From: Bilabrum cf. latius
Taxonomy: Eukaryota
Direction of reading: 5' to 3'
Assembly: GCA_965178125.1 (NCBI GenBank)
Contig: OZ237736.1
Coordinates: 1,426,001 to 1,490,000, forward strand
DNA length: 64,000 nucleotides
The translations under genes and the position numbers were made by a program. This document shows, one piece after another, positions 1-64,000 of this stretch (its first letter is position 1; each line of letters opens with the position of its first letter). The notes under the pieces are model-generated. The model made no database searches and was not told where the DNA came from. It saw nothing but the letters and a program-made list of their open reading frames with translations.

Positions 1-3000
1 CTGCTGCCCGTTGCGGATGAAAAACTCGCTCTCGCGCACCACCATGGCGTAGGTTGGCAGCAGCACCGACTGCACGAACTTGACGAGGAGGGTGGGGATG
101 AGGGACAGGAACACAACCATGGGCACGGTGAACCAGAAGGCCGCGCTCCCGAAGACCTTGCTCATGATCCCCTTGGAGCCCTCGGAGTCGAAGTAGTCGA
201 TCAGGTACGCCACGGCAGGCCAGGAGGCAGTGCTGAGGAACGTGAAGCACACAAAGATGATCTCGTGCTGGTAGGTCTCGATGGCGATGCGGATGTTCAC
301 CACGCACACCACGATGCTCATGAGCACGCTACCAAACCCAAAGATGCTGGCAGTGTACCCGTCAGGCTGCGCGGACTCTCCCATGGCTAGCACGCACAGG
401 AAGAAGATCAGCAGCGACTCGTACACAGACTGGAAGAGCCAGCGGACTGCCACGTAGGAGTTGAAGTGCTTGCGGAGGCGCCCAGAGCTGTACAGGGCAG
501 GGAACCGCTGCGCCGAGTCCTGGTCCACGTCCTGGTCCATGGCTCCCACCGCAATGATGGCCACGCCAGTGAACGTCATGTTGTAGGCCTGTGTGGCGAA
601 CTCGGGGAATACCTTCTGTCCGGACCAGCCCGTGTAGATGTTGTACCAGTACTGCACCAGCGTGAAGAGGCTGTTCTTGTAGAAAACAACCAGGATGAGG
701 ATGGCCATCCGCATGTAGTTCCAGCGGCCGTGCACCAGCAGGAGCTTCTGCAGGAAGCGGAACTGGCCGAACGAGTAATCGGAGGCGTTGGCGGCGCTGT
801 TGCCCTCCAGCCCCTCGATGCCCACCCCCACGTGCGCCGCCGAGATCATCTCCACGTCGTTGGCGCCGTCGCCGATGCCAAGGCAGCACGAGTTGGGCAC
901 CTCATACTTGACCAGCTCAAGCACCGTGCGCTTCTGTGAGGGCTAGCAGCGTGCACCGATCACGCTCGTGCACCGCTGCAGCATCTCAAGGAAGGCCGCC
1001 CTGCGGTCCCTCTTGAAGTCGAGGTTCTTGGACATGACGCCGTTCGGGTACTTGGCCGTGTCCGCCTCGATCTCCTCGTAGCCGGGCCAGTCGAGGAAGA
1101 AGCTCATCGAGCCCTCGTCCACGACGAGCGCGAGGGGTCGGGAGTTGCCGCCAGCGTACTTGACGAGCAGCATCACCAGATCAAAGGCAAGCACCCACTC
1201 CACCACGTCGCGCTTGTCCTGCGCGGCCTTCTCCTTGTTCTTCTCCGTCTTGGCAGCGCGGACCCTCAGGTCCACCTCCTTGATCTCGCGATAGAGACCC
1301 TTCACCACGGACTGCGCCGCGTTCAGGACAGACTGGCTGACTCTGCCGTCCTCGCCCCGCGTGGGCACGAGGAAGTCCCTGAGCTTGGTCAGCTGCGTCT
1401 CGCGCACCTTGCCATACGGGAGCGGGGAGCGGCCGAGCCCCATCGCTGGGTTGCTCATCGGGCTGACGGCCGCGCTGTCCCGCCGCACCGAGTCGAGCTC
1501 AGCGAGGGGGTTGGGCGACCGGTGGTTCCCGGGCGTGACTCCTCCTTCCTCCAGGTCCGCGTCGGGGGACTGCGACGTGGCCTTATCGTCGGCCGCCACC
1601 TTGCGCGAGAGGGCCGAGTGAGGCGAAGGCGCGTCCCCACCGGATGCAGCCGCAGCCGCGCCCCCCACACCCCGAGCGGAGCGCATCTTCGGCCCCCCGC
1701 CGAAGCTGGAGCTGCGGCTGGAGCGGCGCAGCGGGTTGGCATCTGCGTCCACGAAGGCCTGCCCCTTGCTGAGGGCCTTGTCCACCTCGCGCAGCAGCGC
1801 GCGCTCGAACCGCAGCGGGTCCCGGTTGCCCGCCTCGTCATCGTCGTCGCCAAAGAGCTTGCCGTAGCGCCACTCCCAAGTTAGCTTCTGCATCTCAGTC
1901 TCGCTCGTGAGCATCTGCACGCCGTATCCGATGTTGATGGCCGTGCCCTCCTTGTCTCCCGTGAGCATAAACACGCTGATGCCCGCGTCCGAGAGCCTGG
2001 AGATCGTGTTGGGCACGTCCTCCTGCAGGGTGTCTTCGTAGCCGACGGCTCCCGCGTACACGAGGTCCCTCTCGATCTTGTTGATGGCGTGGTTGATGAT
2101 GTTCTTCTTGGCCTTTTTCGCAGCCGATTCGTCGTTCGTGCGCTCCAGCATCTCCTTGAACACGCGATCCGCCTCCTTGCTCGCCGCGTCCCTCTCCTCG
2201 AACCACTGAGCGAACTCGTCGTAGCTCATGCGGCGGTATCCGAACACGAGGGTACGCAGGCCGTCCACGGCGAACTGCTTGCAGTGGTCCGCGGTCCTAT
2301 CGCGCATCGCGCGCTGCCTCTCGTGGAAGGACCTCTGGCGGTCGTCCATCCCGCGCAGAGCCTGGTCGCTGGGCAGCTGGTACAGCTTGGCCAGCACCTT
2401 CTGGTCGCTGCCCTTGGCGTAGATGGTCACGCGGTCCGGGGCGTCCTCGTCCTTGTCCGGGTCCATCATGACAATGCTCATCATGGCGCGGGCGCTCGAG
2501 TACGGGTTCAAAGAGGCGATCAGGCGGCGGATGTACACCTTCTGTCCGGTCTTGGGGTCGACCTTCTCGACCTCTACGGTGGGAAGCTTGGTGTCCTTGT
2601 CGTACGACCGCACCATGAGCTTGTAGCCGAGCTCCTTGGCGGCGTAGCAGAAGCAGATCTCGTCGCTGGAGTCGCCGGCCAGCGCGTAATCGCCGCTCTT
2701 GGCGTCTGGCTCTAGGTCCACCGTGGAGCAGAGGATGAAGGAGAGGATGAATTCCTCCAGGTCCTGGATGTGCTCGTTGGTCATGTCCCGGCCCTGGGCG
2801 TCCATCGTCCGCACCTGGGCCGTGCGCACCGCCTGCAGCTTGCGGCGCTCCCCGTCGTCCTCCACGAAGTTCACGTGGGGGGTCTTGTTGGACCTCTTCA
2901 TGTTCTCGATGCCGCGCTTGAGGATGATCTCCTTCTGCTTGACGTTCTGGCGGTCCGCCTCCGTGCGAGCCTGGCCCCTGGCGCTGATCACCGCGATCTC

Positions 3001-4837
3001 CGTGGTGCCCACGCCGTACTGGAAGCCCCCCACGGTCATCTTCCGGAACTCGAACGAGTTGGCCGTGAGCGTGCCCGTCTTGTCGCTAAAGATGTGCGTG
3101 ACCTGTCCCAGCTGGTCGTTGAGCGTCGAGTTTCTCACCCTGGGCAGGATGTTGCGGTTGCGCTCCCCCGGGGTGGAGTAGTACATGTCGTCGTCCTGCT
3201 CCATGAAGAGCTTCTGCGCGATGCGAGCCATCTCCATGGACACGTACAGCGAGATGGGGATGAAGCCCGAGGTCACCTGCACGAACGTGAAGAAGGTGAT
3301 CACGGCGTCCAGCGGCTGCACGTCCTCGAGGCCGAGGTACAGGTGCGTGTCCGAGTTGGCCGAAGCAAAAACGTAGAACATGATGGCTCCAAGGAGGCAG
3401 AGCACCAGCTGCGTGATGAACATGATGGCCACAAAGGTGTTCATCTGCTGCGAGAGGAAGATCTGCTTGGCCGCTGTCTTCTTGCTCTGCTGCTTGATGA
3501 ACGTGTCGGGGCCCGTGTAGATCGCCAGTCCGATGATGTGCGAGCACGCCCTCAGCTTGCACTCCCGCAGCAGTACCTGCGCGTTGCCCTTTGTGCTCGC
3601 CTTGATGTCGAAGCCCTCGGGTGGCACCGACACGTCAATGTTCGTGGGAGTGGCCCCGTTCGGGGGCTGGTAGGTGGCGCTCGTGAGCTTCCCGCTGAAC
3701 TTGTCCAGGTCCTTCATGTTGGGCTGCAGCTCGCACCCGATGGACAGGCCGCTGACCCTCCGCTCCTCCTGCACCAGCTGGGCGATGTCAGGGGACACCG
3801 CGTTGAACTTCTTGAGGTTGGACTCCCCGTCGAGGGAGGCCGTGTCCACGGAGCACGACGTCATCTTGGCGAGCTTGGCGGCCTCAGTGAGCTCCTCGCC
3901 CTCCTGGCTCTGGAAGGCTGCGGGGGGTTGGGAGAATCGGGGCGAGGTAACTGATGCGTTCAATGGCAGTGTAGGCGGCGGGTACGTGGTGCCATGTCAG
4001 CAGCATCCCCTCGGATTGGAACTATGGCTACCAAAGCAAAGCCCGATGCGGCGCTTCACTGGAAACACTTCACTCACCGACTCCGAGCAGCACCATATCA
4101 CAAGGGAAGAACTCCTCGTTGTACACCTTGATGATGTCGCCAGGCCGCACCTCCTCCCAGCGCACCTTTTTGGCGGCGCCGTCGCGGAACACTGTGGTCT
4201 GCTGGCCATTCGTCGTAGACTGCTCGACTCGCCTCAAGTACTCTTCGTAAAATTCGCGACTGCGACCGATGGTGAGGTGAAGGCATTACGAGAATATAAT
4301 ACAGAAAAGCATCATTCGTCTCGGATCGCTGACGGCTCTGGCAAAACCGAAAAGGCTGTCGCTTCACTCACGCCAGTGAGACTAGATAGACGAACGTCAG
4401 CGGGAAGTATGTCACAGGGACTTGTTGAGTCGTCGAAATCTCCCGGATCATCTGGAGCAAGCCAATTATGACGAAATAGAAGTTCGCTGCCTGCGACATG
4501 AAGGGTGCATGCATGGGGGACCACATGAGCGCTTATGCAGTCCTTAGGCAGAAAAAGTTTAAATGTGTGTCTGCAAGTCGTGTCTCGTCAGTTAAGCTCA
4601 TATCCATCCTGTTTGTAGTCTTCTTGCAAGCATTCTCGAATCGGGTAGCCGGGACGCAATGGCACTCACCTGAACAAAGAAGTCCAAGAAAGTGAACACA
4701 ACAAACAGATCGATGTAGGTCCAGTACTTGGCAACCTTGATCCAGTTTGTTCTGTCCCCTTTGTCATTTGTAGGGCCCTAAAATCCTACTTTTCGCTGGG
4801 TCTCTTCCTGCACATCGCCGCCGCAACACCACGACAT
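1..4837 (-). CDS. P4-type ATPase (phospholipid flippase); 3' end runs off the window
   Basis: Motifs NWIKVAKY, ANFYF, LDGESNLK, FIPISLYV, DKTGTLT, MLTGDK, ARC[Q]PSQK, GDGAND, LVHGRWNY. GT-AG introns at 4491-4669, 4260-4371 and 3918-4077 join in frame. In-frame TAG at 4778-4780 and 943-945; GDGAND and the C-terminal TM segments lie downstream of the second TAG. Start ATG 4837 (MSWCCGG) is a best guess. Confidence 0.93.
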
Positions 4838-5201: not shown

Positions 5202-7941
5202 TCACCTCCTCCCGCCACCGCCACCCCTCCTGTCTCTTCTCCTTCGATCGCGACCCTTCCTCCGCCTATCCCGCCGACGGCCACCGCCACCGCCACCGCC
5301 ACCGCCACCGCCACCGCCACCGCCACTAGATCCCCTTGCGCCGGGGCCGGCACCACGCCCAGGCCATACCGAACGTTCCCTGGATCCGGAGCGGGATCTG
5401 GACGGACCACGACGGCCGTTGCCCGCCGGTGAACGAGACCGCGAGCGTGACCTCGACCGCCGCCAGTCCACGGCCCCACCCCCCATCGCCAAGGGGCCTC
5501 CAGCCCCCCCTCGTCCATACCCGGAGCCAGAAAGTGTGCGCTGCTCTCCCCAGCGATCACGAGGGGGCGGGCCGCCGCGGCGATACGCGTCATCCTCTGC
5601 TCGACCAGCCGAGGCGTAACCCCTGCCGCGGAAGTCGCCTCGGGGTGGGCTGCGGCTGCGGCCACGGAAGCCGCCTCGGGGTGGGCTGCGGCTGCGGCCG
5701 CGGAAGCCGCCACGGGGTGGGCTGCGGCTGCGGCCACGGAAGTCGCCTCGGGGTGGGCTACGGCTGCGGCCACGGAAGTCGCCTCGGGGTGGGCTACGGC
5801 TGCGGCCACGGAAGTCGCCTCGGGGTGGGCTGCGGCTGCGGCCACGGAAGTCGCCTCGGGGTGGGCTACGGCTGCGGCCACGGAAGTCGCCTCGGGGTGG
5901 GCTGCGGCTGTGGCCACTCCCTATCCCTCTTGCTCCCCTCTATGGAGCCCCCTGGCGGTCTCTTGGGCTTGCTGGCCTCACAGGCCCGCGCCCATCCCCG
6001 TGCCTGTCGGGTCCCGGCCGGCTCCCAGCACCATCACCACCCACAGCACCACCCTCGCTGCTGCCTAGTGGCCCACGGTTCACGCGCCCCCTCCCCCTCC
6101 CGCTCCCGTCGTCCCTCTGTGGGAGGCCACTCGATGCAGCCTGCCCAGGGGTCGGGCCTCCCCTGCCAGTTCCCTCTCTCCGGCCCCCGGCCCGCCAGTC
6201 CCCTGCGGGAAGGCCCCTTTTGTCACCATCAGGTTCCCGGGCCTGTCGGGACGCAGGTGCAGTCGCGATCTCAACGCGCAGTCCGCTCCCCCCTCCGGGC
6301 CCACGCCCGGTCCCTGCTGGTGGCGGTGCCCCAGCTCTGGGCCCTCCCGAGCCATAGGTCTAGCTCTGGTGCGGGTTCTGCCTCTCCCTCCCAAGCGCGG
6401 ACACTGGCTATCTCTCTGCTGAAGCCGGGCCACGGGCAGCATGACCTGCACTGCCATAGCCAGAGCTGCTGCTGCCACGAGCGCCGGGCCGAGGCGCAGG
6501 CTCAGGTCCTGAACCAGACCTCTCTCCTTTCTGCGCCGACGGGGCCGGTGCACTGGCTCGGCCGGCGGCTGCAGCAGCAGTAGATGCAGTCACGGTGGAG
6601 GCAGACGCACCGGTGGCTCCTCCCATCTGCTGCTGCTGCTGCTGCTGCTGCTGCCCCTTTGCAGCCACGGCTGCCTTCCGCCTCTACCTGGAGGAGTACT
6701 CGTGAAAGTCGAGCCTTGCGTCCAACAGGGCGCTGAGGGGCCGCAGTCCCGCCGTGGGGCGGTCGGGGTCAACGACAGGGGGGCTCCTGGTGAAATATGG
6801 GTCCTTCAGCGCATCTGCCGCAGTTGGCCGCCGGGTCGGGTCGGAGTCGAGCAGCCTTGCAGTGAACTTTCTGAGGTCTGGGGGAAGACCCAGGCGCTGC
6901 AGGTGGTGGACCAGCTGAGGCGTCTGGTTGGTAGGCACGACGCCCGCATCCTTCGCGCTTCTAAAGTCGGGGAGGTTGGCTAGGAAGGAGCCGGGGGCGG
7001 GTGTGCCGAGCACCTTGAGCATGTTGCGGAGCTGGTCCGCCTCGTTGGCGGCCTGAAAGAGGGGCCGCTTGATCCACAGCTCGGCGGCGATGCAGCCCAC
7101 GCTCCACATGTCCACGGCGGCGCCATACTGCTTCTGGCCCAGCAACAGCTCGGGAGGCCTGTACCACAGAGTAATCACCTTTGTCGTCATGGCACCCCGT
7201 GCCGAGGAGGACGGGGGCTCCACGCCGCGCGCCAGGCCAAAGTCTGCTAGCTTCAATGTGTGGTCTGTGTGCAGCAGGATGTTGCTGCACTTGATGTCCC
7301 TGCGGTGCGAAACGAGTGTGGAGTTGGCACACGATGGCAGCTGTGTGGCGGACACGTGCTTGCGGGCGCATGGCCGGCAGATTGGCGTCGATTCGTACCG
7401 ATAAGCGCATCAATGCGCAAGTAAGCTGTGGCAAGACTCACCGGTGCACCACATCGTTCGAGTGGAGGGCCTCGAGGGCTCCGAGCAGCTGGAACAGATA
7501 GCTCTTCACCATGCCAGCGTCAATACGGGCCCCACTGTGGAGAATGCCGTACAGGTCGTATGGACAATACTCAAACACCATGTATGCCGTGCCTGCTCTG
7601 TCTTCGGAGTCTAATGCCTAGTCTTCGTCTGTTGCAGTGACCACCTCGACGAGCTGTACAATATTGCGACCCTGCAGCACCGGATTATTCAAAATGGCAA
7701 CCTCCCTCAGGGCAGTACGAGGAAAACCTTCCGCTTTACGTTCATCCCGAACCATTATTTTCTTGATTGCAACGGGGCGGCCTGTCTCTCTGCACGTCGC
7801 TCGATACACCTTGCCGTATGTCCCTTCGCCGACCTGTTCTATCCGTTCATACGAACGAATCGATCTTGTTCCAAAGGCAAGCTCGCTAAGCGAACGAGAC
7901 ATGCCGACATCGGAGGGAGCAGGCTCCCCTTGTAGAGCCAT
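5202..7941 (-). CDS. CDK9/CDK12/CDKC-like cyclin-dependent kinase with long Gly/Arg/Ser-rich C-terminal tail (~865 aa)
   Basis: GEGTYGKV, VAIKK, GFPRTALRE, HR|DIKCSN (intron 7300-7441), LADFGLAR, VITLWYRPPELLLG. In-frame TAG at 7618, 6684, 6408, 6360 and 5940; the frame continues into RS repeats and ends at TGA 5202-5204. Confidence 0.88.
5626..5915 (-). repeat. 36-bp coding tandem repeat x8 encoding RSRSPPRGDFRG
   Basis: The ggaag anchor recurs every 36 nt from 5630 to 5882, in frame within the CDK tail. Confidence 0.92.
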
Positions 7942-8217
7942 GATGAAAAATTTGCTGGAGCCGCGCACGTGTTGCAGTCGCCTCCAGATTGCTCAACTCC
8001 AATCGAGTCTTGTCAATGGTATATCCAACAATATGAAATGCTTGTATTTTGCAGGAACGCCTCGCAGAAACGCTCGACTGCCCGGATAGCGTCCACTCGA
8101 AGAGAACTTGAAGTGTGATGATGAGAGCTTATACTAGTAGTAGCTTCAATTGGTACTCTGGTGGTCCCATCGTACCGATCGACAGCTTGATAATATGAAT
8201 TGAATTTGAAGCAGAGA

Positions 8218-10857
8218 ATGGCTGGTGCGCCATGCGTCGTTATTCTCGATATTGGCTCATCATCTATCAGGTCCACACTAGTAGCTCCAGGCATGGATTT
8301 GCCAATTGGCTTTGCCCAAGTCCCATTCAACCTGCACGATGAGTTGCAAGTCAATAATATTGGAATCTTGTCCCGTGCTTTGTCTACGGTAGAGAGAGCG
8401 TTGATTGAGGCCGTGGAAAGCGCCGTTGTTGCCAAAAAGCGATTTCACGTTGCAGCTATCGGGTGTTCAAGCTTCGTGGGAAATTGGGCACTGTGTCAAG
8501 AGGGATCAGAACCAGGTCCCTTGCACACGTATGCGGAAACGGGAGAAGCTCTGGTGGAAGCGGCAGACCAGGTCGCCAGAAACTACCGCTCTGCGTGCGA
8601 TCTTTCCCCTCCGGTCAGCACCACTAGCAGCGAGGCGGCCGGTAGCAGCACGGGCTCAGGCACCAAGGCATCAGTTCATGCTCGATACAAAATCCATGCC
8701 GCTACCGGGGCACCTCTGCACCCTGCCTATGCAGCACCCGGTATGCTTCTTCACGCGTCCACAGCCCCACCAAGAGGCCGAGGTGGGTCTGCCGAGGAGC
8801 CCCCGCCTGCCTCTGCGAGTCCACAATCAGACAAAGAACACCTAGTTACTGTCGGTGGGTACGTCATGTCGCGGCTCGGAGGCATGCAGCCGCACGAAGT
8901 CGGGCTCTCGCTCTCGGAGGCCTCTTGGCTCGGCCTGTGGAGGACCCCAAAGGCAGTGGAGGCTGCTGCTGCCCCTGGTCCTCGAGAAAATGGAGCAAGC
9001 GGTGAAAGCGGCAGCATTTCCAATGCGCAGCTGTGGGAGACGAATGTGTTGCGTGCGTCAGGGGCTAGCGAGTCTCTGACTGCCTCACTCAATGCGTCAT
9101 GGACACACGCGATCTCGGTGCCTGGGCCAGAGCCAGCTACAGCTGAAGCACCATGTGTTGCAGTACGCGAAGAGGTTATTGATCAGGGCACAACAACACA
9201 ACCTGCCGGCAAACGGACCCACCGGGCAGCCCGACTAGCCAATGACGGAATCCTCAGTGCTCTGCGCAGGGCAGGTGCCCTGTGCTTGTGCAGGCAGGTG
9301 TGCCCTGCCGGCGAGGAACGTGACGTGGAGGTGCCTCCTGTCCTGTTTCGGTGTGTGGGAGATGGGGCGGCGGCTGCCATCGGCAGCGGGTGTCTTGGCG
9401 GCGACCGCATCAGCGTCACGATCGGCACCTCTGCAGCTGCTCGCACGCTCATCCAGGTCGCGCCAGATGGCGTCGTGCCATCGAACCTGACACCAAACGC
9501 CGCTGTCGGCTCCGGATCAGGAGCCTCTGCGTTGCGTTTGGAAAGTGTACAGCACGGCGAAGTCGCGGAAACGGGACCGGGCGATGAACCGCTTGCAAGC
9601 TCGCTCGGTTGCATGCTTGCGAGTGCCGGGCTGTGGATGTACCAGGTCACAAAAGACCGCTTTCTCGTTGGCGGCGCGCTGACTGACGGTGGATCCGTTG
9701 TCGATTGGGTGCAGCAGAAGTGGGGGGGCGGGTTGGAGGAAGGAGACGGAGAAGGAAGCCATGGCAAGCGTGCTGCTGCTGCTGCTGCTGCTGCAGGCAC
9801 ACGCAGTCAGGTGAGTGGTCCCAAGGCGAGTGCGGGCACAGCGGGAGCTGCTGCGCAAGAGGCGGACAGCCCTCGGAGCCAACCTTGCGTCGCTGCGCGG
9901 GTGTTGCCTCCTGCCTCTCCTGTGGGCTGTCTCCCCTTCTTGCATGGCGAACGGTCCACAGGCTGGCGGGCCAATGCAACTCTGTGCCTGGATGGAATGA
10001 ACGGTGGCACCGGAGCCGGTGATGTCGCGCTCGGTGCGGCCCAGGCGGTGTGTTTTCGGCTCAGGGAAATCACGGATGCCCTGTCGAAGATTTTGTCTCG
10101 TATTCCATAGGTAGAAGGCTCGTCAAATGGGCGGCAAGGTACTCGAGCCATCGGCTCCGGCGGCTGTCTTGAGCACAGTGCCTTGCGCTGGATTCAGGAT
10201 GCAGGTACCTTCAGAGGATTTGTCGAATCGAGCGGCGTGCCCTATGCACGATCGCTGAAGCAGGTCCGCAGCCTGTGGGCCCCACTGCTGTGCATGTCCC
10301 TTGACATGCCGCTGGTGATCCCTGGAGCCTCAGCCAAGGGCGAGCACAAGTCTGGGACAAGTGCTCGCAGCGGCAGTGCCGGGCCCTCCGTCGGAACTGC
10401 AGCGAGTGGCATGCCAGTGCCAGTGCCAGTGGCTGTGGAGACGACCACGCGTGGAGTGGCAGCGCTCATATTCGGGGAGCTCGTTGCGGCGGGCGTTCTG
10501 CGAGTGCCTGGTCCTGGCAGTGCAGAGACGGGCATGGAGAGTGGAGAGAGGGTCGGCCTGGACTGTTGCCGGCTGGCCAGTTGGTCGGGAGAAACTGCTG
10601 CTGTTGAGTAGGAGATGGCGGGAGACGGAGGCGGAGATGGGCGCGGGGGAAGGAAGGACCCGTTCCTGGCTGGGTGCGAGCTTGCCAAGGTGCCTGGGGT
10701 CGGGAGCGGGGCAGATCTCGCTGGCGTGCGGATCGTTCCTCGCGCCGGCGTGCCAAGCTAGATGGAACTGGAAATCGCGGGGTCGTATGGGACAGCGCGG
10801 TCCAAGCACAGGGCGCTGTACAAGAGAATGGTGGCTGCGACAGATGAAGCGTTCTGA
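8218..10857 (+). CDS. FGGY-family carbohydrate kinase (gluconokinase/xylulokinase-like) with low-complexity insertions (~879 aa)
   Basis: VILDIGSSSIR, GDGAAAAIGSG, VTIGTSAAAR, GGALTDGG, LPFLHGERSTGW. In-frame TAG at 10108, 10609 and 10759; the GSGG and ETTTRGVAAL C-lobe motifs follow the first TAG. Ends at TGA. Confidence 0.85.
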
Positions 10858-10967: not shown

Positions 10968-13900
10968 ATGCTGCTCCACGCAGCGTTATCTGCGAGCCTC
11001 GCAATGACAGCTACTGCATTCTATGCACAATACGAACCACCCCCGATCCATGGGATGGTAAGGATGGACACCTGGGAGCCATCCACGCGAAATGCGCCGC
11101 GTGAGTTCTGAGATTCTACATGCTCCTTGATCTCGCATTGAAGCAACCTAGTCGCATAGATAAGTTGAATACCAGATAAGTATCGACAGTGCTGCCGATT
11201 CTTTGCATATGGTTGGAAGATCTTGCCCTACATTTCATGGTTGGCCGTCTCCCATGATTCTGCACCTTGCACGCGCCTGTGCTTCTACCGCAGCAATGCC
11301 GTATCGATTGGAAAGCTGGGCATAGCACAATGGCTTTGTTTATATGTCAACTAATCGTGATACTGACAACACCTGGTGGAACTTCGGTGTTTGGCGCCTG
11401 GAGCAGGACAGCGTCGGGGAGCGTTGGTGAGTGGGTGTTTCTGGTCCTGTTCGATCGCTAGTTCCACACGGGAAGGGTTTTTCGGCATGAAATCAGTTTC
11501 GCTACATGCACTCTCATTCACTTGTCGATACTGTTGCTGATTGATCTTCTCTTATCTTCTTTCGGCACTGTACTTCCGCCTGACGCAGGCGCCATGTTGC
11601 CCGGCGCGCCGGTCGGTCGAGCGACAAGCTGGTCTCTTGCGAAGAGCACGGGCTGTATTCTATTAACTCTCAGGTCCTATACCGTCTGAACATGACTGGG
11701 TTCGAGCAACCAGCGAATTACACGCGCGAGGGGGCGGGCGAGCTCCCAGCGGAAGAAGCGCAGAGACGAGCAAGTTGGATCGAGATCCCGACGCCCGGCT
11801 TCAAGCTGTCAGGTGCTGGCAGGTACTACGACCCCGTGCAAGGCCGTATGCTTGCAGCATACGACGAAGTGTACGAGTCAGACAGCTGGGTGGACGCGCA
11901 CGGGCTCGCGCAGCTGAACATGAGCACGATGGAGTGGACGCTGCTGCCTAGGACGGGCCTCACCGACTCTGACATCCGTACAATCGCTGCCCTGAGCGAT
12001 GGGACCATTGCCGTGGGTCAGTCCGTCTTCCAGCTTCCATGCCCCGCCTCCGGCACAACCAACGGCGCCCTGTTCAGGCTCTCGCCGGGGGGCGACAGCT
12101 GGGAGGACATCTCGAGAGACAGGTATTGCAACTCGCGCTGCTTTGCTCAGGGTGAAGAGACGCAGTGCAGCCAGCTCGACCGCTACTATGGCAACGTCGC
12201 GGTGCGCGCTCCCGACCGCGACAGGCTGTACCTGGAGAGCAATGAGCTCTTCAGCTGGAGCGAGGCCGAGGACGACTGGGTCTCGGAAACAGGAGACTCC
12301 ATCCCGTACGGGTCAAGTTCGTACGTGGGAGACTCGTTCTTCATGGTCATCGGGGGCAGGATGCTCCGGCAGGACAGCGCATCGCTGACGGTGTACTCCC
12401 ATGCGAGCAACTACAGCGCCTTCCAGAACCCGGGGGCCTCCTCGTGGTACCGCTGCAAGCACCTAGACAACATCTTCACGCCGGATGGGGGCAGGACCTT
12501 TTACGCCGAAGTGAGGACGGGGTACGCCGACGGAGATGTGGAGGGGCTGTGCGACTGGGGCCAGAGGAGGGTCTGGAGGGGCATCCACCGGCTCGTGATC
12601 GACCCATGCCGCGCAGAGCGCACTAACGATTTGTCCGTTGAGTTCGGGACGTACCTCGGCTCGTCCGAAACAGAAGACGCCAACGTGGCAGGCGTGCAGG
12701 TGGTGCCGGCCACCGCCGACTCTGTACCCGCCCAGAGCACTCCAGGGCAGGTGACGGCATCCCCGGAGCAAGACGGGCAGCACGTGCTCGTGGCCGGGAA
12801 CTGGGGCAACATACCCTCCATCGGCCACTCGTCACACTGGCCCCTGGAGGCGAGCGGCTACGGTATCCAGAACGAGACCTCGGCTCGGCTGGTGGGCCCC
12901 GTGGCTCAGGTGGCGCGCATGTCGCCAGAAGGTAGGCTGTACTACGTGTCCAGGTTCGGCAACACCACCATGACAGATTTTGAAGCCAGCACAGCCGGCC
13001 ACGGCGCCCCCGTGGGCGGGTCGGGATCCACATCTCAGGGCACTCCGGCGGAGTGGAGGCGCCTCGTGTACGCTGCCCTGGAGGGGAAAGGCGTCGTAGC
13101 AATCAGCCCGAACGGCACACATGTGGCCTGGCGCACGTGCAGCTACGACAACGAGCACGCGGCCTCGAGCGCCGGCAACGCTGAGCCCTCATCTAGCGCT
13201 TCATCGCAGGCGTGCTGCCCCTCGGGCCTGCCCTGCAGGGTGTCCGTCTCAGAGGACGGGAGACTAGTCTCTGTGCTCTCCGGCAAGCAGGCTCGCGTGT
13301 TCGATGCCGCCTCGGGCGCAGAAATCGCGCGCACGTCGCCCGCTCTCCTCTCTGGACAGTCGTACGTGGAGGACGTGGCGGTGTCTGGCGACGATGAGAA
13401 GCTGTACGTGGCCGGATTCAACAACCGGTTCAACGGGGGCATCCCCGTGCAGATCGCATTCATCTTCGCGTACGACCTGACCGCTGCCGTGCAGGCGCAC
13501 GCGAGCTCTGGCCAGCTGCCCGTGCTGTTGACAGAGCGAGTATGGACGTCTTTCAACTTCCATGAGGACAACGTGACGCTGGACATGGCCGACACCCGCA
13601 TGTACAGGCTCGCCGTGGGTCCCGACGGGCAGCTTTACGCTGCCGGCGAGACGGCTGGGGGCAACACCATCTTCCGGTATGATGGCAAGGCGACGGAGAC
13701 GCAGGCGGTGGAGCGCGGTGTTTTGCTGAGGAGGAGGCTCATTCAGACGGACCAGTGCAACACTCCGTTCCTCATGACTGATGCCCACGTCGCGTACGCA
13801 GCACGGCTGGATCCCTCGACAGGTGAGGTGCAGGCTGCCCAGATGATGATTCCCCGCCTGACTGGGTCCGTCCCCAAGTCCAACACGTACAGAGTGCGCT

Positions 13901-30621: not shown

Positions 30622-30773
30622 GTTGTGCGCTTGTGCAACGGTGCTGACACAAAGGCTGCGGCCGCAATCTCTTGCGGTGAGGCATCTCAGCTCGGCATCC
30701 GATCGACGAACCACGCCGAAGGTTCACATGCCCTGGGCTGGTGTTCCTTTTCCCGGCCCACGTTTTCTATAAT

Positions 30774-34145: not shown

Positions 34146-34179
<34 letters not shown>

Positions 34180-39861: not shown

Positions 39862-40015
39862 ACTCCTTCAAAATTTAGCAGTGAACGAATTCCGTGGTGA
39901 AGCGAGCACATTCATTTTGACGTCGCAAGCTCCGGTCGCAACTAGTTGGGCTGCAAAAGCTGCGATTCTCGCATACTTGCTGGATCAAGTTGGCCGCGTT
40001 CGATTCGGGCTCAAA

Positions 40016-43279: not shown

Positions 43280-43808
43280 TCAGTCCATCCCGTCCATACC
43301 AGCCTTGCTCCGGGGATCGTTCTGGGCAGCCTCGCGCTTCCTCTTGATGATGTCGTTCCGGCCCTTGTTCGTCTTCAGCTTGATGATCTGAAGGTTGGAG
43401 GGATGGAACGGGATCTGCACGGTGTTACCGGACTGGCCGCTCTTGGTGCGCTTCACCTCCTCGATGTACACGACAAACTTGCGCCTACAAACCCGAGTCA
43501 CCTTGCCCTCCTGGCCGCGCACGGTGCGCTTGTTGCCTACCATCACGCGAACGCGGTCGCCAGTCACCACCGGCATGCGAGAGACGTGGTGCTCCAGCTT
43601 CTCATCCTTGCTCAGGCTGCACACCATCATCTTGTGGCGCCTCTCAGAGTGGGCAGAGAAATGAGCCTTGCGGGCCTTGCGCCGGGACGAGCTGACGTTG
43701 GGGCTGCGACGAGAGGGGCAATGCTGGATAAGGCAAACATCCGATGGATCAGGCCAACTGCACAATCAAAGGATACCACGGCCGCATTCCTGCTTACTTG
43801 AACTTCAT
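43280..43808 (-). CDS. RPL26: 60S ribosomal protein L26 (uL24), 144 aa
   Basis: MKFN|PNVSSSRRKARKAHFSAHS (intron 43704-43797), GD.V.V..G, EGKVTRV.R.K, HPSNLQIIKLK. No TAG codons; ends at TGA. Confidence 0.95.
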
Positions 43809-47389: not shown

Positions 47390-47425
<36 letters not shown>

Positions 47426-54709: not shown

Positions 54710-56002
54710 ATGCATCGGCTTGGACAAGAGGCGCAAACTAAGCTGAGATAGCACGCCCGATCCTTGGTACGAGCCTACCGCCCGCCATCCTGGGCTGTAG
54801 GCTCGTACCGCCATCCTGAAGGGCTGCGTGGCGCGGATTCGCAGGTGTGGCTTGGTGCTGAGCATGTGACCCCGATACAACCGTGGTTTCTCTCAAGCAA
54901 CGACCTACCCGATGGCTACAGTGTGCATATCAAGCGCGATGACTTTTTGCGGGGCGGTGCTAGCGCTGGCAACAAGGTACGAAAGCTCAGTTTTATCTTT
55001 GCCCAAGCCCTAGAGAATGGTTGCGATTCCATTATATCATGCGGAGGAGTGTAGAGCAACCACGCTAGGATTACGACTTCTATGAGCCGGGAACTCGGCC
55101 TCGAGCCCTTGATGCTGTTGCGATCCGCCACCCCCGAGGACGGCCAGCAGGCAGGTACACGCGGTAACATGTTTCTTCACCATGCGCTTGGCTGTCGTGT
55201 ATACCTGACCAGACAAGATCCATTCGAGACTGGCCTGCGACCAAAGATGGAGCGGATCATAGAACAGCTGCGAGTCCGGGAAGGCCGGCACACGCACCTG
55301 ATCGGGGTAGGTGGGTCCGATTGCACGGGTCTCTGGGGCTACATTGACGCGTGGCGAGAACTTGAGGAACAAGGCGTCTCTGAGCGGTTCGATGACGTGG
55401 TGGTGGCCGTGGGCTCGGGCGGCACGGCAGCGGGACTCGCCATCGGGGCGCATCTGGCGGGCTCCCCTGTCAGGGTGCACGCAGTGGCCGTGTGTGACGA
55501 CGCAAAGTACTTCCACGACCACACCGACGGAATGCTGCAAACAATCGGCCTTTACAGAGAAGCAGACGACCCGAGCCCAGGCGCAGCCGCAGGCGGCCCC
55601 GGCCCGGGTCTCGCTCCCACTGGCACTCGGTCCCGCGAGATCCTGGACGTGATCGAGGGCTACAAGGGGGCGGGCTACGGCAGAGCGAGAGCGGGCGACT
55701 ACGATTTCATACAGAGAATCGCGACTGAGACTGGCGTGCTCCTGGACCAGACATACACAGGAAAGGCGGTGCAGGGGATGCTAGCCGAATTGAAAACGAG
55801 TGCCGCTGGGGACAGTGCGAGCAGAGGCGGCGATCCGCAGGCTGCGGGCAGGTTTCGTGGCAAGCGAGTCCTGTACGTGCACACTGGAGGGGCCATGGGG
55901 CTGATGGATGGCCGCGCCGATTACCATTTCAATCGAGGAACCGTGTGGCCGTACAGTGACGCGTGCGAGGGGATCGGCGGAGCGGCAGACAGTACAGCAT
56001 GA
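54710..56002 (+). CDS. D-cysteine desulfhydrase / ACC deaminase family PLP enzyme (~430 aa)
   Basis: TPIQ, IKRDD, GNKVRKL (PLP lysine), CGGV[Q]SNHAR, GSGGTAAGL, LDQTYTGKA, YVHTGG. In-frame TAG at 54749 and 55052; ends at TGA. Confidence 0.93.
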
Positions 56003-56225: not shown

Positions 56226-58448
56226 TCAGATGGACTCTGCAGCCCTGGTCCCTTCGCCCTCCCCGTCGGCAGCCGCGCGATCCCCGCTGCTCGATCCCGT
56301 GCCAGTGGTGGGGTCCTCCAGCTGCTCGAACCCCGGGGCCGGCGCCGCGCCGCGGACCGATACCTGCGCATCAGACGACGGCTGCATCGCCCGCCCCGAA
56401 TATGCAGAGCCCCGCCCCGCACCTCCGGCGGCCCCCGCACCTTCGGTGGCCCCGCCGCTGCTGCCCCCCCCGCCGCAGCACACATAGTACAGCATCATCG
56501 CGAATGCCCCGCCGAAGACAAGCCCCAACACGAACGTCCCCGCCGCCAGCCCCACCTCCTCCCTCAGCTGCGCCTCCGTGCGCGAGGGACAGTCGGACTG
56601 GGCCGACGGCGGGGCCACGCTGCCCCCGCCCCCATCTTCGCCGCACAGCGACCGGTCGGGCACGGGGGCCGATGCGCAGTAGGGCGCCGTGTCGCACACG
56701 AGGTTCTCCAGTCCAACGTCGTTGAGCGAGTGCTCCGTGAGAGACTCGAGCGTGGGTCCGTGCGGGTCAAAGAACGCGAACGAGACGTCGCTCCGGAAAT
56801 CCTTCCATTCCCCCTCGGCCCCTGACACCGGGCTGCCGTCCTCGTGGCACCACCGCCGCCTCCCGCGGTATTGCACCTCGAGAGGCACGCCGGACATGCC
56901 ACCCCCGGGAACAGCGGTCCTGTACACGGGCCACGAGTCGGCCACGAAGAAGAAGCTCGCCACCCCTTCCGAGCACACGAACCTCTCCGAGGGGTCGAAG
57001 CGGGGGCCCAAGGGAGGCCCGTCGTCGTCACCCCCGTCCTCTCCCTCCTCCTCCCCGGCCGCCACCTCCTGGGCCTCCTCCTCCTCCGTCTCGAAGAAGA
57101 GCCCGTCGGCGGCCGAGGCCCCCGTCCGCTGGAACTGCGCGTCAAACTGCATGGCAGGCACGGTCCCGCGGGCCGTGACGAGGCCCTTGTAGGTCACGTT
57201 GAAGTCCACCCCGGGAGTCCCGTGCAGCCCGAACAGCTCTAGGGATGGGCGCAGGTGTCCCGTGTCGTCCGTTAGAATGTCCTGGGCGTTTCCAGCGTAG
57301 AATACCTGGCACTCAACGGCTAGATCGCCGTCCGCCGGGTCGATCGCTTCCCCTGGAGCCGCGGGCGTGGCTGGCCCCGCGGAGATGCGGTACCTGACCT
57401 TGCGGTTGAGGTCTTCGAGGAGCGTGACCCGCTCGCCACCGGGGGCCAGCACGTCCATGCGCGCCAGCTGCCGCTCCGAGTCGAAGAATTCCCGCACGTG
57501 CGACGTGCTGCCGACCCAGCCGGTAGGAGCGTCTGCCGCCAGAGCGGGGCCCGCGGGATCCACGTACATTTCCGAGGTATAGTCGAAGCTGGTGCTGTAG
57601 GCCGTGGGGAAGGCCGGCATCGTGGGCTCGGGGGACGGTGTGGGCACCGGGGGCGGCGAGGCCGCAGAAGGGGGCCCGAAGGAGCGCGCGGGGACGGGGT
57701 TGCAAGCCGCCCCCGGGGGCCTCGAGAGGGTGGGGGGGGGGGCCTCGGGCCAGAACCGGACGTACTCGTACGAGTGCTGGAATCTGTGCACGTCCACCAC
57801 GTCGCCGTTTGCGGCGAAGGTGATCCTGGCCCCAGAGACGAGGGCGCGGAGGGGCACCCTATACGGCGAGTGCTCGCCTTCGCCCGATCCGGGGCCGCGG
57901 CGGAAGGAGAAGGCTTCCCAGCCCTCTGCCGCGAAGCTGAACAGGATGTCGTACTCACTGTCAGATCGACCCCCGTTTGGTAAGGGCCGAGATTGGTTTC
58001 GTACCCTGACGTCCCACACCTCGGCCCTGATGCCTCGTACCATACGCATCCCGATGAATTGCGGGTTGAACTGCGCCCCAAATCGGAAGAAATCGGTAGA
58101 GCTCTCCAACCTGGGGGCAGAGCTGGTGTTTCCTGAGAATGGGCCATACGTTTCAGGGGAAACTTCGCACCGATCCTTGTACGTGATCAAGTTATCGTGG
58201 TCCGAATCTTCAATGGTGTATCGCCGCTCCGTCCGAAAATCGTCAATGATCGCTACTAGCACACCTGCGCGTCGTTCTTCCCGCCTCTGCCAGTTGTTGT
58301 CGTGGTCAAACCACTCACGGATCGATAGACTCTCATTTAACTCCAAAAAATTGGCCTCCACATCCACTGAGAACTATTCAGGCAGGATGGGCAGCTCGCG
58401 AGCCAGCGTGCCAGTCACCATGATTCCAGCTAGTGCTAGAACTAACAT
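56226..58448 (-). CDS. Signal-peptide and single-TM protein with two related beta-rich extracellular modules (possibly ependymin-related/LolA-like fold), ~740 aa
   Basis: Signal peptide MLVLALAGIMVTGTLA is only in frame through TAG 58374 (LPILPE[Q]FSVDVEAN). Repeated IREWFD/VREFFD and G...RG...(W/F)D patterns; TM LAAGTFVLGLVFGGAFAMMLYYV. Ends at TGA. The fold assignment is tentative. Confidence 0.7.
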
Positions 58449-58512
58449 CTACGAAATAAAAGGGGGTCTGAATGGCCTGTGTGGAGTACATGCCGGGTGG
58501 CGAGGCTGCTAG

Positions 58513-58678
58513 GGAGCGATCAAGAGCGACACGTCACCGCAGGCTGCATCGGCTGCTTCATGCATACAGCGGAGCGATCAAGAGCAACACATCACCGCAG
58601 GCTGTATCGTTTGCTTCATCCATACAACGGAGCGATCAAGAGCAACACATCACCGCAGGCTGCATCGGCTGTTTCACG
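58513..58678. repeat. 58-bp imperfect tandem repeat x~3, non-coding
   Basis: ggagcgatcaagagc(g/a)acac(g/a)tcaccgcaggctg... begins at 58513, 58571 and 58629. Confidence 0.88.
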
Positions 58679-59762: not shown

Positions 59763-62700
59763 TCAGGACATGGTCGGCGCCAGTCCCAGCTCCCTCATGC
59801 GGTCCGCCAGCACGACCTCGTGGTCCTGCGTGATCTGCAGCAGCCGAGTGCTCGCCTCCCCGCGCTCCACCGCAAACTTTTCCTCGAGCGACCGGCGCCG
59901 CTTCGGGTCCTTCTCCTTGGCCAGCGCCGCCTCTCTCGCGTCCTCTGCCCCCTGCTCCTCCTGAAGCACCCGGAGCAAGTGCTCGTTCTGGTCCCTCCGG
60001 AGCTCCTCCAGCTGCTTGGCAGCGGCCCGACGGGCCTCCGAGCTACTACTACTGCCGCTGTTTCTGGTTCTGGTTCCACTCCCCGGCGCATCTCCCGGCA
60101 TCGCACCACTATGTCCCCTTGTTGCCCCGCGGCTGGCATCGCCGACAGCACCGCCCACGGCCTCTTCGAACCCGTCCAGGTCTTCCAGGTCTTCCCCGCC
60201 TGCATGCACGCCATCGTCGTACGCCTACCCATCTCCATTCTCGCCCGATGGGTCTGCTGCACGAGACCTGCTGCTGGCCCGAGAATGACCCTGCTGCAGC
60301 AGTGCAGGCGTCCTGCCGTACAGCTCAGGGGCAGCGCCAGGCCCCTCCTTCCCACTGCCTCCAGGGCCGCCCAACCGGCTGCTGCCGGGGCGCCGCCTGC
60401 TGCTCGACGAGGCGCCCGCGGTGCGGGGCCTCCTGCCTCTGCCACGGCCCTTGGCTCCCCTGCCCCTGCCAGTGCCCTTGCCAGTGCCCCGGCTCCTGCC
60501 CGAGCCAGTGCTCGGCCTGCCCTGGCCCCGGCCCCGGCCCACCGAGCTTCGCGCCGACTGGCCCCCGCGGCCGCCATCGATCGGAGGCAGTGAGGCACCG
60601 TGCCTGCTGTTCCCCGGCCCGCCATGCACCCCACGCTGGCCCCCACTCCCACCAGCACCCAGGCTGCTCGCGGACACCGCCTGCCGCGCCGCCCGCGCCG
60701 CCCTCCTCTCGATCCGAGCCTCCTCGCCCTCGTCCACGGGGCCCCTCGGGGGCACGAACCGAGCAGAGGCAGTGGAGGGACGCTCCCGCCCTGGACCCTT
60801 CACCCTGGCCCCGGGACTCCCATGGAGCCTCTTTCTGCGGCCACCGCGGACAGAGCCGGGGCGGGATCGGGCTCCGTCCCCGGCCCGGGTCGGTGACCCC
60901 ACACTGGGGACACCCGAGTCGCGGGGGTGTCGCCGAGGGGGGAGCGACAGTGGGGAGCCGTGGATGTCCCCGTCCCTGTCCCTTCCGCCCCTTCCGCCTG
61001 TGATCGAGGGGCTGCCCACTGATCCCGCCTGCGAGCCGCCTCCTCCTGCTCCTCCTCCTCCCGCCCGCGCTCTCGCCTCAACCGCTTGCACGTCGATGCC
61101 CATGGAGGCCGCCAGCTCCTTGAGCTTGCCCGTGTCCTTCTGCTTCTTGATGCGGTGGAACTCCTCCATGAGCTGTTCCTTCTCGTGCTTGCTCTGCTGC
61201 AGGGCCAGGTGCTTCTGGCGCCGCACCTCCTCGCGCTGCCGGCCGACCTCTTCGGCCCTGCGCGCGGCCGCATCGAGCCGCAGCTTGGTCCTCAGCTTTG
61301 CGTACTCCTCCTTGCGCTGGACCCTCCTGATCGCCTCCTGCCTGGCCTCTTCCTTGGCTGCCGCGCGGCGGTGCTTGGCCGCCTCTTGCCGTGCCAGCTC
61401 CTTCCGGGCCTCCTCGGCGCGCTGTTCCTTGGCCTCTAGCTGGCGGAGCATGGCCTCCCGTTTCTCCCTCTGCTCCTGCATGTACTGCTCCAGCGCCTGC
61501 TTGCGGTGGGCCTCCTTGGAGCCCTCTCCCCCGTGCATTGCCCTCCACTCCTTCTGCTTCTGCTCGAGGAACTTCTCCACGTACACTTCCTTTCTCCTCG
61601 CCTTGTCCAGGATGGCCTGCTTCCGCTCCCTCTCCTGCTCCTCCATCCGCCGCTGGGTCTCGCGGATGTGCCTCTCTTTCTCTGCCGCCTCCTCCCGCGC
61701 CTTCCTCTGCCTCGTCTCCTTCTCCATCTCGAACTCGCGCTGCCGACGGGCCACATCGGCGTCCCGCCTCGCCTGCTCCTCTGCCGCCCGACGCACCTGC
61801 TCCTGCTGCTGGGCCTGGGCCTGCGCCACGCGCTCCTCGGCGATAGCTCGCTTGCGGGCCGCCCGATCCTGTTCCTTGCGGCGCTGCTGCTCCACCTTGG
61901 CCTCTCTTTGCTTCTCCTTCTCGCGCGCCTCCCGCTGCCTCGCCTCTGCCTCCTCCCTCTGCCTGCGATAGATCGCCTCCTTTTCCTTCTGAAACTGCTC
62001 TGCCCTCCGTGTCAGCTCCTGCTGCTTCTTGATGGCCTCTCGCTTACGGCGCCACTCCTCCTTCTTGGCCTCGGCCGCCGCGCGAGCAGCTGCCTTCGCC
62101 TCGCGCTCCATCACCGCCTGCAGCTCCCTCTCCTTCTCCTCCTCGCGCCGGCGCCTCCGCTCCTCTGCGGCCTCCCGCTCCCTGATTGCCCGCGCGGCCC
62201 TCTCTTTCCTCTGCCTCTCCAGGGCCTCCTGCCTCTGCCTCGTGCGCTGCGCCTGCTGCTCCATGCGGCCCCCGATGGCGGCCATCTGCACCTCGTGCTC
62301 CAGCATCCGGGCGATCTCGTCACGCTGGTGCTGGCGCATCTTCTCGAGGGCGTCCTGTTCCTTGCGGAGGGTGCTGTCTGCGGCTCCCACTGAGCTCCTG
62401 CGCCTGCCGCTGCCCCTGCCAGCTCCGATCTGCAGGACGACGAGGTCTTTCGCACCAGACGCGATTATCGCATCGCGCGCCTGGATCACGGCTTGCAGCC
62501 TCTCTGCGAGCTTGTGGGGAACATTGGGGCAGTGCAACATGCATGGGGTGCTTCGAGCGGCAGGGCCGAGTCGGGTGCCGCTGCGGCTTGCAACATACCT
62601 CTTCTCCTCGCTTCGAACCGCTCGAACCGCTCTCGCTGCACGTCAGAGTCCTAACCGACCTCTCTAAATGCATCATAGTCGCGGAACACTAGCTCGTCGG

Positions 62701-62929: not shown

Positions 62930-63260
62930 ACTAGCGCAATTTTTCCGACTCAATACCTTCAAACCTAATTATGAGAGGGAAGGGTTATCGCGAAGAGCCC
63001 CGCTACGGTGTTTGGCTTGCAGTATACGGGGTGGAAGAAGCCCGAGCCGTTCAGTGCAATGTTGCGAGTACTTTTGGTCCGGATCCGGAAATAGAATTCA
63101 AACCGCCCGGTGGGCTTTATGCGGTAATTTGTCTGTACTATAGAAGAGTAGGGCAAGTCTGCAATACATTTTCGCAATATCGTGACTGTGCCGAGTTGTA
63201 GCACGCTCAATTAACGATCTGCATCAACTCTGTGACCTGCGGCGGCCCCACCATCGAGCG

Positions 63261-64000
63261 ATGCCGGTCCTCAGTCGTCCGATGCAGCTGCTGACATTCG
63301 TGGGAGGCCTCTCGCTCACGGCCGTTGCGATCCGGTAGTTTGGCCGTGGAGTTGCTAGGCATGCGCGGACGGTTGGCTTGCATGGCAGGGATGCGCGAGA
63401 CGCTGAAGACGACGAATCTTCGTCGGCCCAGCAAGGCGCCGGATCGTAGGCCCCGGGCAGCCGACGAACGCGGCGTAGGGGCCTGGCAGGTATTGCTAGG
63501 ATTGTTAAGATTTGTTGTCCCAACGGGATCGCATCGATAGAAGGTTTCTGGGCAGTGCTGTCGGCCGTGCTGATGCTCGTTCGAACGCAGGCAGACCTGC
63601 TCTCGATCAACAAGCAGACCGAGATTGAGCTTGCCATCATCCAGAAACGTGTCCGGTCCTTCGAGTCCCTCCTCGTGGAGGTCGCGCTGATCGCCATCCC
63701 GGTGAGCGCGGCAAACGCCATGATGCGGTACGCCCTGAAGCAGCTCGAGCACCGCCTGCAGCTCAACCTCACGGCCCACCTCGTCAGGAGGTGCACGGAG
63801 GAGAAGGTCCTGTACCGCCTCACACGGGTGGACGACCGCCTGCGGGAGGGCCCCCAGCACACCATCTCCGAGGACGCGGCCGAGTTCGCGCGCGTGCTCG
63901 TGGAGCTCTACCGCCGCGTGGTGTCCTCCCTCACCAACATCGCCATCTACTGCTACCGTCTCGGGCAGTCGATCGGCGTGGGCGCTCCCGCGGCGCTCAG
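63261..64000 (+). CDS. Peroxisomal ABCD (PMP70-like) half transporter, 5' part; runs off the window
   Basis: Not in the supplied ORF track. IVKICCP..SIEG, LVRTQAD, IELAIIQK, PVSAANAMMRYALKQL...NLT, YRLTRVDDRL..PQHTISEDAAEF resemble the ABC_membrane_2 domain. In-frame TAG at 63336 and 63447. Confidence 0.8.

Follow-up and report, generated by a model that had tools for sequence, protein, structure and literature searches.

UAG is probably read as glutamine in the nuclear genes of a GC-rich, intron-poor stramenopile

We analyzed a 64-kb stretch of contig OZ237736.1 (positions 1,426,001 to 1,490,000), which we call the window and number from its first base. In nearly every gene of the window the codon TAG stands in frame. 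The window has a G+C content of 63%, and its gene content is that of a eukaryotic nuclear genome. Introns are scarce, about 84-216 bases long, and their ends are GT..AG. In our best explanation, which is very probably correct, the window comes from the nuclear genome of a GC-rich, intron-poor stramenopile that reads UAG as glutamine and terminates translation mainly at UGA and also at UAA (the pattern of NCBI genetic code table 15). A preliminary description of the same DNA had proposed a reassignment of UAG to glutamine; all testable parts of that interpretation are supported.

Genes were delimited by open reading frames (ORFs) together with Pfam matches, homology and/or spliced transcript joints (Table 1). 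Segmentation by codon usage, tried for exon limits, gave fragmented output and was dropped. For the tally of in-frame stops we used 22 coding segments from 19 genes (17,217 codons); the segments were ended at TAA or TGA. All tallies of stops, gene ends and codons cover the 64 kb of the window.

Table 1. Genes and long ORFs of the window, with their in-frame TAG codons and terminators
Feature	Coordinates	Strand	In-frame TAGs	Stop	Evidence
P4-ATPase (flippase) exon, leaves window	1..3996	-	1		Pfam PhoLip_ATPase_C, E 7e-73
CDK-like kinase	5202..7992	-	5	TGA	Pfam Pkinase on both exons
FGGY-type carbohydrate kinase	8218..10857	+	3	TGA	Pfam FGGY_C
REJ-domain membrane protein	11689..18276	+	5 (one at 15136-15138)	TGA	Pfam REJ, E 2e-32; metagenome orthologue L001
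Long coiled-coil protein, tandem-repeat core	18501..24428	-	18	TGA	ORF (2020 codons over 18501-24563)
Secreted beta-helix protein	24575..26503	+	4	TGA	Pfam Beta_helix, CHB_HEX_C_1
RS-rich protein, intron 27046-27136	26760..28551	+	5 (exon 2)	TAA (28549-28551)	Spliced X7/X9 contigs
CCT2 (TCP-1 beta), 532 amino acids, introns 30164-30255 and 30390-30605	28715..30700	-	1	TGA	Pfam Cpn60_TCP1, E 4e-140; spliced contigs
RPF2 (Brix), introns 30918-31018 and 31355-31455	30778..32139	+	2	TAA (32137-32139)	Pfam Brix; spliced contig, 0 differences
TALE-homeobox protein	32740..38148	+	14	TAA	Pfam Homeobox_KN
GSK3/MAPK-like kinase	38236..39861	-	4	TGA	Pfam Pkinase; PDB GSK3 matches
WD40 protein, intron 40117-40206	39900..42991	+	4 (exon 2)	TGA	Pfam WD40; spliced X7 contig
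RPL26	43280..43765	-	0	TGA	Pfam Ribosomal_L26
Mitochondrial citrate-type carrier, 295 amino acids	44184..45370	+	1	TGA	Model from GT..AG sites; orthologues
2007-codon ORF, low-complexity, no known family	45668..51691	-	17	TGA	ORF length only
D-cysteine desulfhydrase / ACC-deaminase homologue (DcyD)	54800..56002	+	1	TGA	Pfam PALP
783-codon ORF, no known family	56226..58577	-	3	TGA	ORF length and GC3 only
959-codon ORF, charged coiled-coil-like protein	59763..62642	-	1	TGA	ORF
Peroxisomal-type ABCD transporter, N-terminal part, leaves window	63186..63998	+	2		Pfam ABC_membrane_2, E 7e-25

TAG within genes and transcripts

Under the standard code the longest ORF of the window has 1185 codons. If TAG is read as a sense codon, then the longest ORFs extend to 2231, 2021, 2008, 1803 and 1332 codons. 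Making TAA a sense codon instead of TAG leaves ORF lengths nearly unchanged. The combined density of TGA and TAA is about 1.3% per codon. Hence, the stop-free frames of 800-2200 codons that we see are not due to chance.

Within the 17,217 codons TAG occurs 91 times in frame, while TAA and TGA do not occur at all. The two off-frames of the identical segments hold 215 TAG, 54 TAA and 544 TGA. At these proportions, 91 TAGs would be expected to stand beside about 230 TGAs and 23 TAAs. TAG accounts for about 0.5% of all codons and about 11% of the glutamine codons, and is present in 18 of the 19 genes. Earlier, about 97 in-frame TAGs had been counted by hand in 19 of 20 genes. Our recount gives a similar picture: 91 TAGs, rising to about 93 if two doubtful 5' parts are included, and RPL26 as the sole gene free of them.

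Pfam and PDB alignments pass through TAGs in the flippase, RPF2, DcyD, the CDK and CCT2. Essential motifs had been said to lie 3' of TAGs, and every one of them is found. The TAG of the flippase (943-945, in ARC-x-PSQK) is upstream of GDGAND, and a TAG of the CDK (7618-7620) precedes the catalytic loop HRDIKCSN. Both TAGs of RPF2 (31052-31054 and 31313-31315) lie within the Brix domain, where alignments with PDB structures of RPF2 cross them. Kinase subdomain XI is downstream of its TAG. The PDB alignments of the GSK3/MAPK-like kinase reached none of the TAGs in that gene. Read-through in the spliced models also yields the family-typical lengths claimed for the carrier and CCT2.

Two points weigh against so simple a count. 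The absence of in-frame TAA and TGA arises partly by construction (the segments were cut at these codons), and 4 of the 19 genes are supported by ORF length alone. In nearly every gene of the window, UAG is an ordinary sense codon.

To see TAG in RNA, contigs of four public sequencing runs (X1, X7, X8 and X9) were compared with positions 24001-44000. X7 and X9 belong to one study and X8 to another; none of the runs is recorded as RNA, and their RNA nature is inferred from splicing. Contigs from X7, X8 and X9 skip 27046-27136, 30164-30255, 30390-30605, 30918-31018, 31355-31455 and 40117-40206, all of which are bounded by GT..AG on the coding strand. Contigs from X1, a DNA run, are unspliced. 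Because GT..AG joints are present in the contigs of X7, X8 and X9 and missing from X1, the former should be derived from RNA.

Across 24001-44000 no substitution, insertion or deletion is listed in the contigs of any run. Ten TAGs lie within joint-bearing contigs (one in CCT2, two in RPF2, three in the RS-rich gene and four in the WD40 gene), and a further 12 lie in unspliced pieces from X7, X8 and X9. Spliced contigs of CCT2 are present in X7, X8 and X9, a spliced X7 contig spans all four TAGs of the WD40 gene, and contigs of X7 and X9 cover the TAGs of the beta-helix gene, in each case with zero differences. Thus UAG is kept in transcripts: the ten TAGs in spliced contigs come from two studies and show no base differences. 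Wholesale editing or splicing-out of these ten TAGs is excluded. Some TAG sites may be edited partially; contigs drop rare variants. One observation speaks against this use of the runs: X7 was automatically classed as 'probably DNA' despite its spliced contigs.

The amino acid and the terminators

The TAG of DcyD (55052-55054) lies inside the motif GGV-x-SNH. Among PDB entries this column is Q in three of the four alignments shown (D-cysteine desulfhydrases) and H in one archaeal homologue. A full-library HMMER search gives Q for 128 of 145 residues, other residues for 17 and a gap in five sequences (best 150 matches). P0281, a relative known from a 75% identical fragment, has Q at the TAG column ('SCGGVQSNHARIT').

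The single TAG of CCT2 (28733-28735) stands six codons ahead of the TGA stop. We aligned 127 CCT2 sequences (P0002-P0120 and the cluster members P0124-P0131), from which the window's own cluster of four Logan, ENA and JGI records (P0001 and P0121-P0123) was excluded. At the TAG column 87 of 125 residues are Q (E 11, R 9, K 8, A 7, P 2, G 1), and two sequences have a gap. The relatives P0121 (96% identical) and P0004 (74%) both read CAPRQRQ. The TAG of the carrier (44376-44378) falls within the first signature motif, PTEFVKT-x-MQLQ. In the nine of 12 matches with this motif, the column holds Q five times, L twice, and E and R once each. The two sequences with L are other, multi-domain carriers, and they are omitted from the count of 5 of 7 and from the likelihood given below. 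Q makes up 88% of the conserved column in DcyD, 70% in CCT2 and 71% in the carrier.

Taking 11 columns together, the log-likelihood is -19.0 for Q, -39.6 for E and -39.8 for T; in mean BLOSUM sums, Q (28.8) also exceeds E (13.7). TAG also stands within repeats of CAG. The TALE gene reads CAG CAG TAG CAG CAG CAG at 34993-35010 (the in-frame TAG is 34999-35001) and CAG GGC CAG GGC CAG GGC TAG at 37417-37437, where the in-frame TAG (37435-37437) belongs to a (CAG GGC)n repeat.

Four variable columns do not favor glutamine; the one in the REJ gene is described below with L001. The first RPF2 column holds N 12, S 10, Q 9, T 7 and others, and the second E 14, D 9, T 7, S 5 and, further down, Q 3 (54 sequences each). 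PDB structures of RPF2 have K, H or N at the first TAG column and D or E at the second, and the PDB flippases that align across the flippase TAG have T or S. The frequency of glutamine neighbors is non-discriminating: it is 10 of 88 for TAG and 82 of 732 for Q, but W, M, E and L behave alike. The variable columns are uninformative or speak for other residues. On the side of glutamine are the Q-rich conserved columns (128/145, 87/125 and 5/7), the relatives and the reciprocal comparison with a metagenome orthologue (L001, see below), all of which agree. Judged by such comparisons, UAG corresponds to glutamine, as first proposed.

Within the 64 kb we see 18 gene ends: 15 are TGA, three are TAA and none needs TAG. 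The same tally had been reported before. The TGA ends include the ORFs of 2007, 783, 959 and 683 codons (the last is described at the end of this text) besides the genes so marked in Table 1, and the TAA ends are those of the RS-rich gene, RPF2 and the TALE gene. In the frame beyond each gene end, the next stops follow within 0-30 codons, and the sequence is AT-richer and resembles an untranslated region (UTR). With a TGA stop the C-termini of CCT2, RPL26, the carrier and DcyD fit the lengths of their families. Two things lessen the weight of this tally: it becomes circular as soon as TAG is accepted as a sense codon, and it comprises just 18 ends. The end of the TALE gene (38146-38154) reads TAA TAA TAG, that is, tandem TAA stops and then TAG.

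The claim that TAA is absent from reading frames holds as well. Window genes use CAA 111 times and CAG 618 times, from which about 16 in-frame TAAs would be expected were TAA a glutamine codon; in the 17,217 codons there are none. Twelve TAAs have at least 100 open codons on both sides, and all of them are antisense, off-frame or intronic to supported genes. This open-flank test is confounded by spurious antisense ORFs in GC-rich DNA, and was used only for TAA in supported frames. Three TAGs lie 40 codons or fewer from the end of an ORF (in CCT2, the coiled-coil gene and the FGGY gene), and the protein continues beyond each of them. The tail of CCT2, for example, reads x-RQGGM, compared with QRQG and QRQ in relatives. 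For this window, UAA as a stop codon is well supported.

Could TAA also encode glutamine and be missing only through its scarcity in 64 kb of GC-rich DNA? Such an ordinary UAR code (UAA and UAG both glutamine, table 6 type) would fit a G+C content at third codon positions (GC3) of about 0.8-0.9, which makes codons ending in A scarce, and would fit the three TAA gene ends, which are few, and the zero in-frame TAAs, which follow by construction. We consider it improbable. The roughly 16 in-frame TAAs that it predicts would have split genes, and no gene is split in this way; the long ORFs do not change when TAA is read as sense; and none of the 12 open-flanked TAAs lies in a supported frame of its strand. 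Downstream of each TAA end, UTR-like sequence reaches another stop after 0-14 codons, and the TALE gene has its tandem TAA. Ambiguous stop codes, in which the meaning of a codon depends on context, are known from Condylostoma, karyorelicts and Blastocrithidia. We give just as little credence to a code of this kind here, with UAG as glutamine internally and as a stop near some 3' ends. The short distance between the CCT2 TAG and the TGA behind it would suit such a code, and standard-code gene callers do end CCT2 (P0001) at that TAG. Yet none of the 18 gene ends requires TAG, the QRQGGM of CCT2 matches QRQG and QRQ in relatives, and the tails of the coiled-coil and FGGY proteins read as coding sequence.

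It is very unlikely that TAG is a sense codon for another residue (Glu, Lys, Ser or Leu, as in some ciliates, Scotinosphaera and the rhizarian exLh). The variable columns, with E/D, N/S, T/S and S, could be read in this way, and so could the one TAG of L001 that aligns to a lysine codon. Against them stand the three conserved columns and the Q of close relatives, a lead of Q over E of about 20 log-likelihood units across the 11 columns, and the TAGs within CAG repeats. Least likely of all, to the point of being hardly credible, is that there is no code change and that the TAGs are assembly errors, decaying pseudogenes, RNA-edited sites or parts of introns. We found no point in support of this explanation. 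The letters are identical in DNA contigs of X1 and in spliced contigs of three runs from two studies, the TAGs lie inside exons bounded by confirmed joints, 18 of the 19 genes are affected while their domains are intact, and L001, an orthologue with 70% identity in an independent metagenome, has the same trait.

The host, its relatives and known codes

The preliminary description held that the host was unlike the fornicates and ciliates with a similar code. CCT2 and the carrier bear this out. Among the best 120 CCT2 matches, all named ones are stramenopile, except five long or odd records (three plants, a fungus and one labelled as an ostracod). In this set Cafeteria roenbergensis is 70% identical and oomycetes are 65-67% identical; other stramenopile matches are Triparma, Tribonema, Ochromonas, Rhizochromulina, Chrysoparadoxa and a diatom. 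The best named matches of the carrier are the brown algae Ascophyllum and Ectocarpus.

We computed a CCT2 tree with FastTree (LG+gamma) from 121 sequences, namely P0002-P0121 and that of the window. The window, P0121, Cafeteria and 17 further sequences form a clade with an SH-like support of 0.992, apart from the oomycete-plus-ochrophyte group. Cafeteria is the only named member of this clade, and a direct sister relation between it and the window has a weak support of 0.396. The tree represents one gene, and Cafeteria is the only named bigyran in a sample without named labyrinthulomycetes, placidids, MAST or other Bigyra. The most that can be said is that the host appears to be a bigyran stramenopile near the bicosoecids.

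Two side observations concern the occurrence of such sequences in databases. The 90%-identity cluster of P0020 (CCT2 of Cafeteria roenbergensis) includes P0129, 'CCT2 [Symbiodinium sp. KB8]', which suggests that a dinoflagellate assembly was contaminated with bicosoecid DNA. Nearly all of a 10-kb query was found in runs from 2025 under four organism labels in four studies, and small shares of it in runs labelled 'algae metagenome' and 'protist metagenome'. This distribution would fit a small flagellate growing in cultures of other organisms.

A scan of metagenome contigs for the REJ protein gave 37 pattern matches and one confirmed locus, L001. L001 is 1758 bases long (61.5% GC), and one of its frames is without TAA and TGA throughout. 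Its protein is 70% identical to the REJ protein of the window over 585 codons. Four TAGs stand in frame in this locus. Opposite three of them the window has CAG, and opposite the fourth AAG (Lys). With glutamine at just 22 of the 585 window residues in the alignment, three CAGs out of four are far from a chance result. In the opposite direction, the TAG of the window's REJ gene in the aligned stretch corresponds to AGC (Ser) in L001, which argues against glutamine. Since this independent orthologue has its own in-frame TAGs, the trait is a property of a lineage with at least one further species rather than of one assembly. In all, environmental metagenomes contain relatives at 96%, 75% and about 70% identity, one of which shares the in-frame TAGs.

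UAA and UAG nearly always change their meaning together, and reassignments of UAG only are few. The code table that we describe (UAG only, as glutamine) is already known; probably the host is a new lineage for a known variant. The UAG-only list in the excerpt of PMC11687900 (2024) used here comprises a rhizarian, Iotanema, Scotinosphaera, Protocruzia and some phyllopharyngean ciliates, and within that list no stramenopile. Our full-text literature search found no nuclear code change in a stramenopile, but most subscription journals and supplements were beyond its scope, and an earlier report is possible. The sole labyrinthulean item met in this search, a literature reference, concerns mitochondria, and the mentions in PMC12560768, PMC12152300 and PMC11412368 proved to be entries of reference lists. 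The suggestion of a possibly undescribed reassignment is thus in line with the literature searched. Among stramenopile lineages, this one would probably be the first whose nuclear code departs from the standard. We lean, if only slightly, towards the fuller claim: the first nuclear code change in the Stramenopiles and an independent origin of UAG-only glutamine, in a GC-rich, free-living, bicosoecid-related lineage of several species seen in metagenomes.

The closest parallel in amino acid and codon comes from the portions of Panek et al. 2017 (PMC5304391) that treat Iotanema spirale (Metamonada, Fornicata), in which UAG is glutamine and UAA and UGA are stops. Like the window, Iotanema reassigns UAG alone to glutamine and keeps UAA as a stop, and the same tRNA-Gln(CUA) and altered eRF1 are predicted. 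Unlike the window host, Iotanema is an anaerobe from an unrelated supergroup, and it is represented by a transcriptome only in those portions of PMC5304391. Its main stop is UAA, whereas that of the window is TGA (15 of 18 ends), and for the window genomic DNA of a GC-rich genome is available.

Other known codes share part of the pattern. According to the same excerpt of PMC11687900, UAG only is read as glutamine in the ciliates Protocruzia tuzeti and two phyllopharyngean lineages. As in the window, UAG is there decoupled from UAA, with several independent origins; but ciliates belong to the alveolates, show nuclear dualism and have a long history of code changes. UAR codes (table 6) are listed in this excerpt for hexamitid diplomonads, Streblomastix, Ulvophyceae and Amoeboaphelidium. 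They share UAG as glutamine with the window, presumably through a mutated tRNA-Gln, but also read UAA as glutamine, in contrast to the window with its zero in-frame TAAs and three TAA gene ends. In the rhizarian exLh (UAG as Leu) and Scotinosphaera (UAG as Ser), as described in the excerpts of PMC5304391 and PMC11687900, again UAG is the only codon reassigned and UAA is kept as a stop. Their amino acids differ from that of the window, where the conserved columns are Q.

How could UAG be read without UAA? In our proposal, a tRNA-Gln with the anticodon CUA would decode UAG but not UAA, with which it could not pair. If eRF1 in addition recognized G at the third position less well, then it would no longer compete at UAG and would still read UAA and UGA. 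The consulted portions of Panek et al. 2017 (PMC5304391) agree: if UAG is sense and UAA a stop, then a tRNA with the anticodon CUA is needed, a single mutation separates tRNA-Gln(CUA) from tRNA-Gln(CUG), and eRF1 must lose its affinity for UAG (T32G in Iotanema, a change equivalent to L69 in the rhizarian). ARAGORN found no tRNA genes in the 64-kb window, and an eRF1 gene is likewise absent from it.

The change could have come about by codon capture. In a GC-rich genome that ends its genes mostly in UGA, UAG stops would have become rare, and the codon could next have passed to a mutated copy of tRNA-Gln(CUG). Finally, C-to-T transitions in CAG would have spread TAG across genes. A GC-rich genome with UGA as the dominant stop would fit this scenario.

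If the reassignment is real, then an independent case in another branch of a supergroup is a data point on the uncoupling of UAA and UAG. Relatives at graded distances would make the code change datable within the lineage. DNA and RNA data exist, and the predicted tRNA-Gln(CUA) and the determinants in eRF1 could be read directly from the genome. There is also a practical consequence: standard-code gene callers split or truncate nearly every gene of this organism. Hence, public proteins of the organism and its relatives are fragmentary unless table 15 is used. P0001, which stops at the CCT2 TAG, and P0186, a fragment of DcyD, are such casualties of annotation.

Further features of the genes

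The CDK-like gene has exons at 5202-7409 and 7441-7992, joined across a GT..AG intron with the junction VVHR/gtgagt...cag. The four exons of the carrier are 44184-44277, 44362-44438, 44524-45023 and 45154-45370. A poly(A) site of RPL26 lies near 43154, where a contig of X9 has a poly-T loose end.

The core of the long coiled-coil gene consists of near-identical tandem repeats ('...VEQELAAAKAAHEKAVAEGSSSTDELRRELDASRARVGD...') with zero TAG. All of its 18 TAGs are in the unique flanks, at amino acids 134-380 on the N-terminal side and 1468-1984 on the C-terminal side. The repeats have weak Pfam matches only, for example, Pox_A_type_inc.

Long antisense ORFs are frequent in such GC-rich DNA, and length alone is insufficient for calling a gene. 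One pair of ORFs overlaps on opposite strands: 55960-58872 (+, 970 codons, eight TAGs) and 56226-58577 (-, 783 codons, three TAGs). Pfam is blank for both, and GC3 together with the G+C content at second codon positions (GC2) favors the ORF on the minus strand.

The frame of DcyD is open for about 330 codons 5' of the domain (53801-54799, +) and has three further TAGs there. Translation probably starts at about 54710 ('MHRLGQEAQTKLR-x-HARSL...'), which would place one of these upstream TAGs in a presequence. In a different frame from DcyD, and ending just ahead of it, lies an ORF of 683 codons (52482-54533, +) that has one TAG, a TGA stop at 54531-54533 and no Pfam match.

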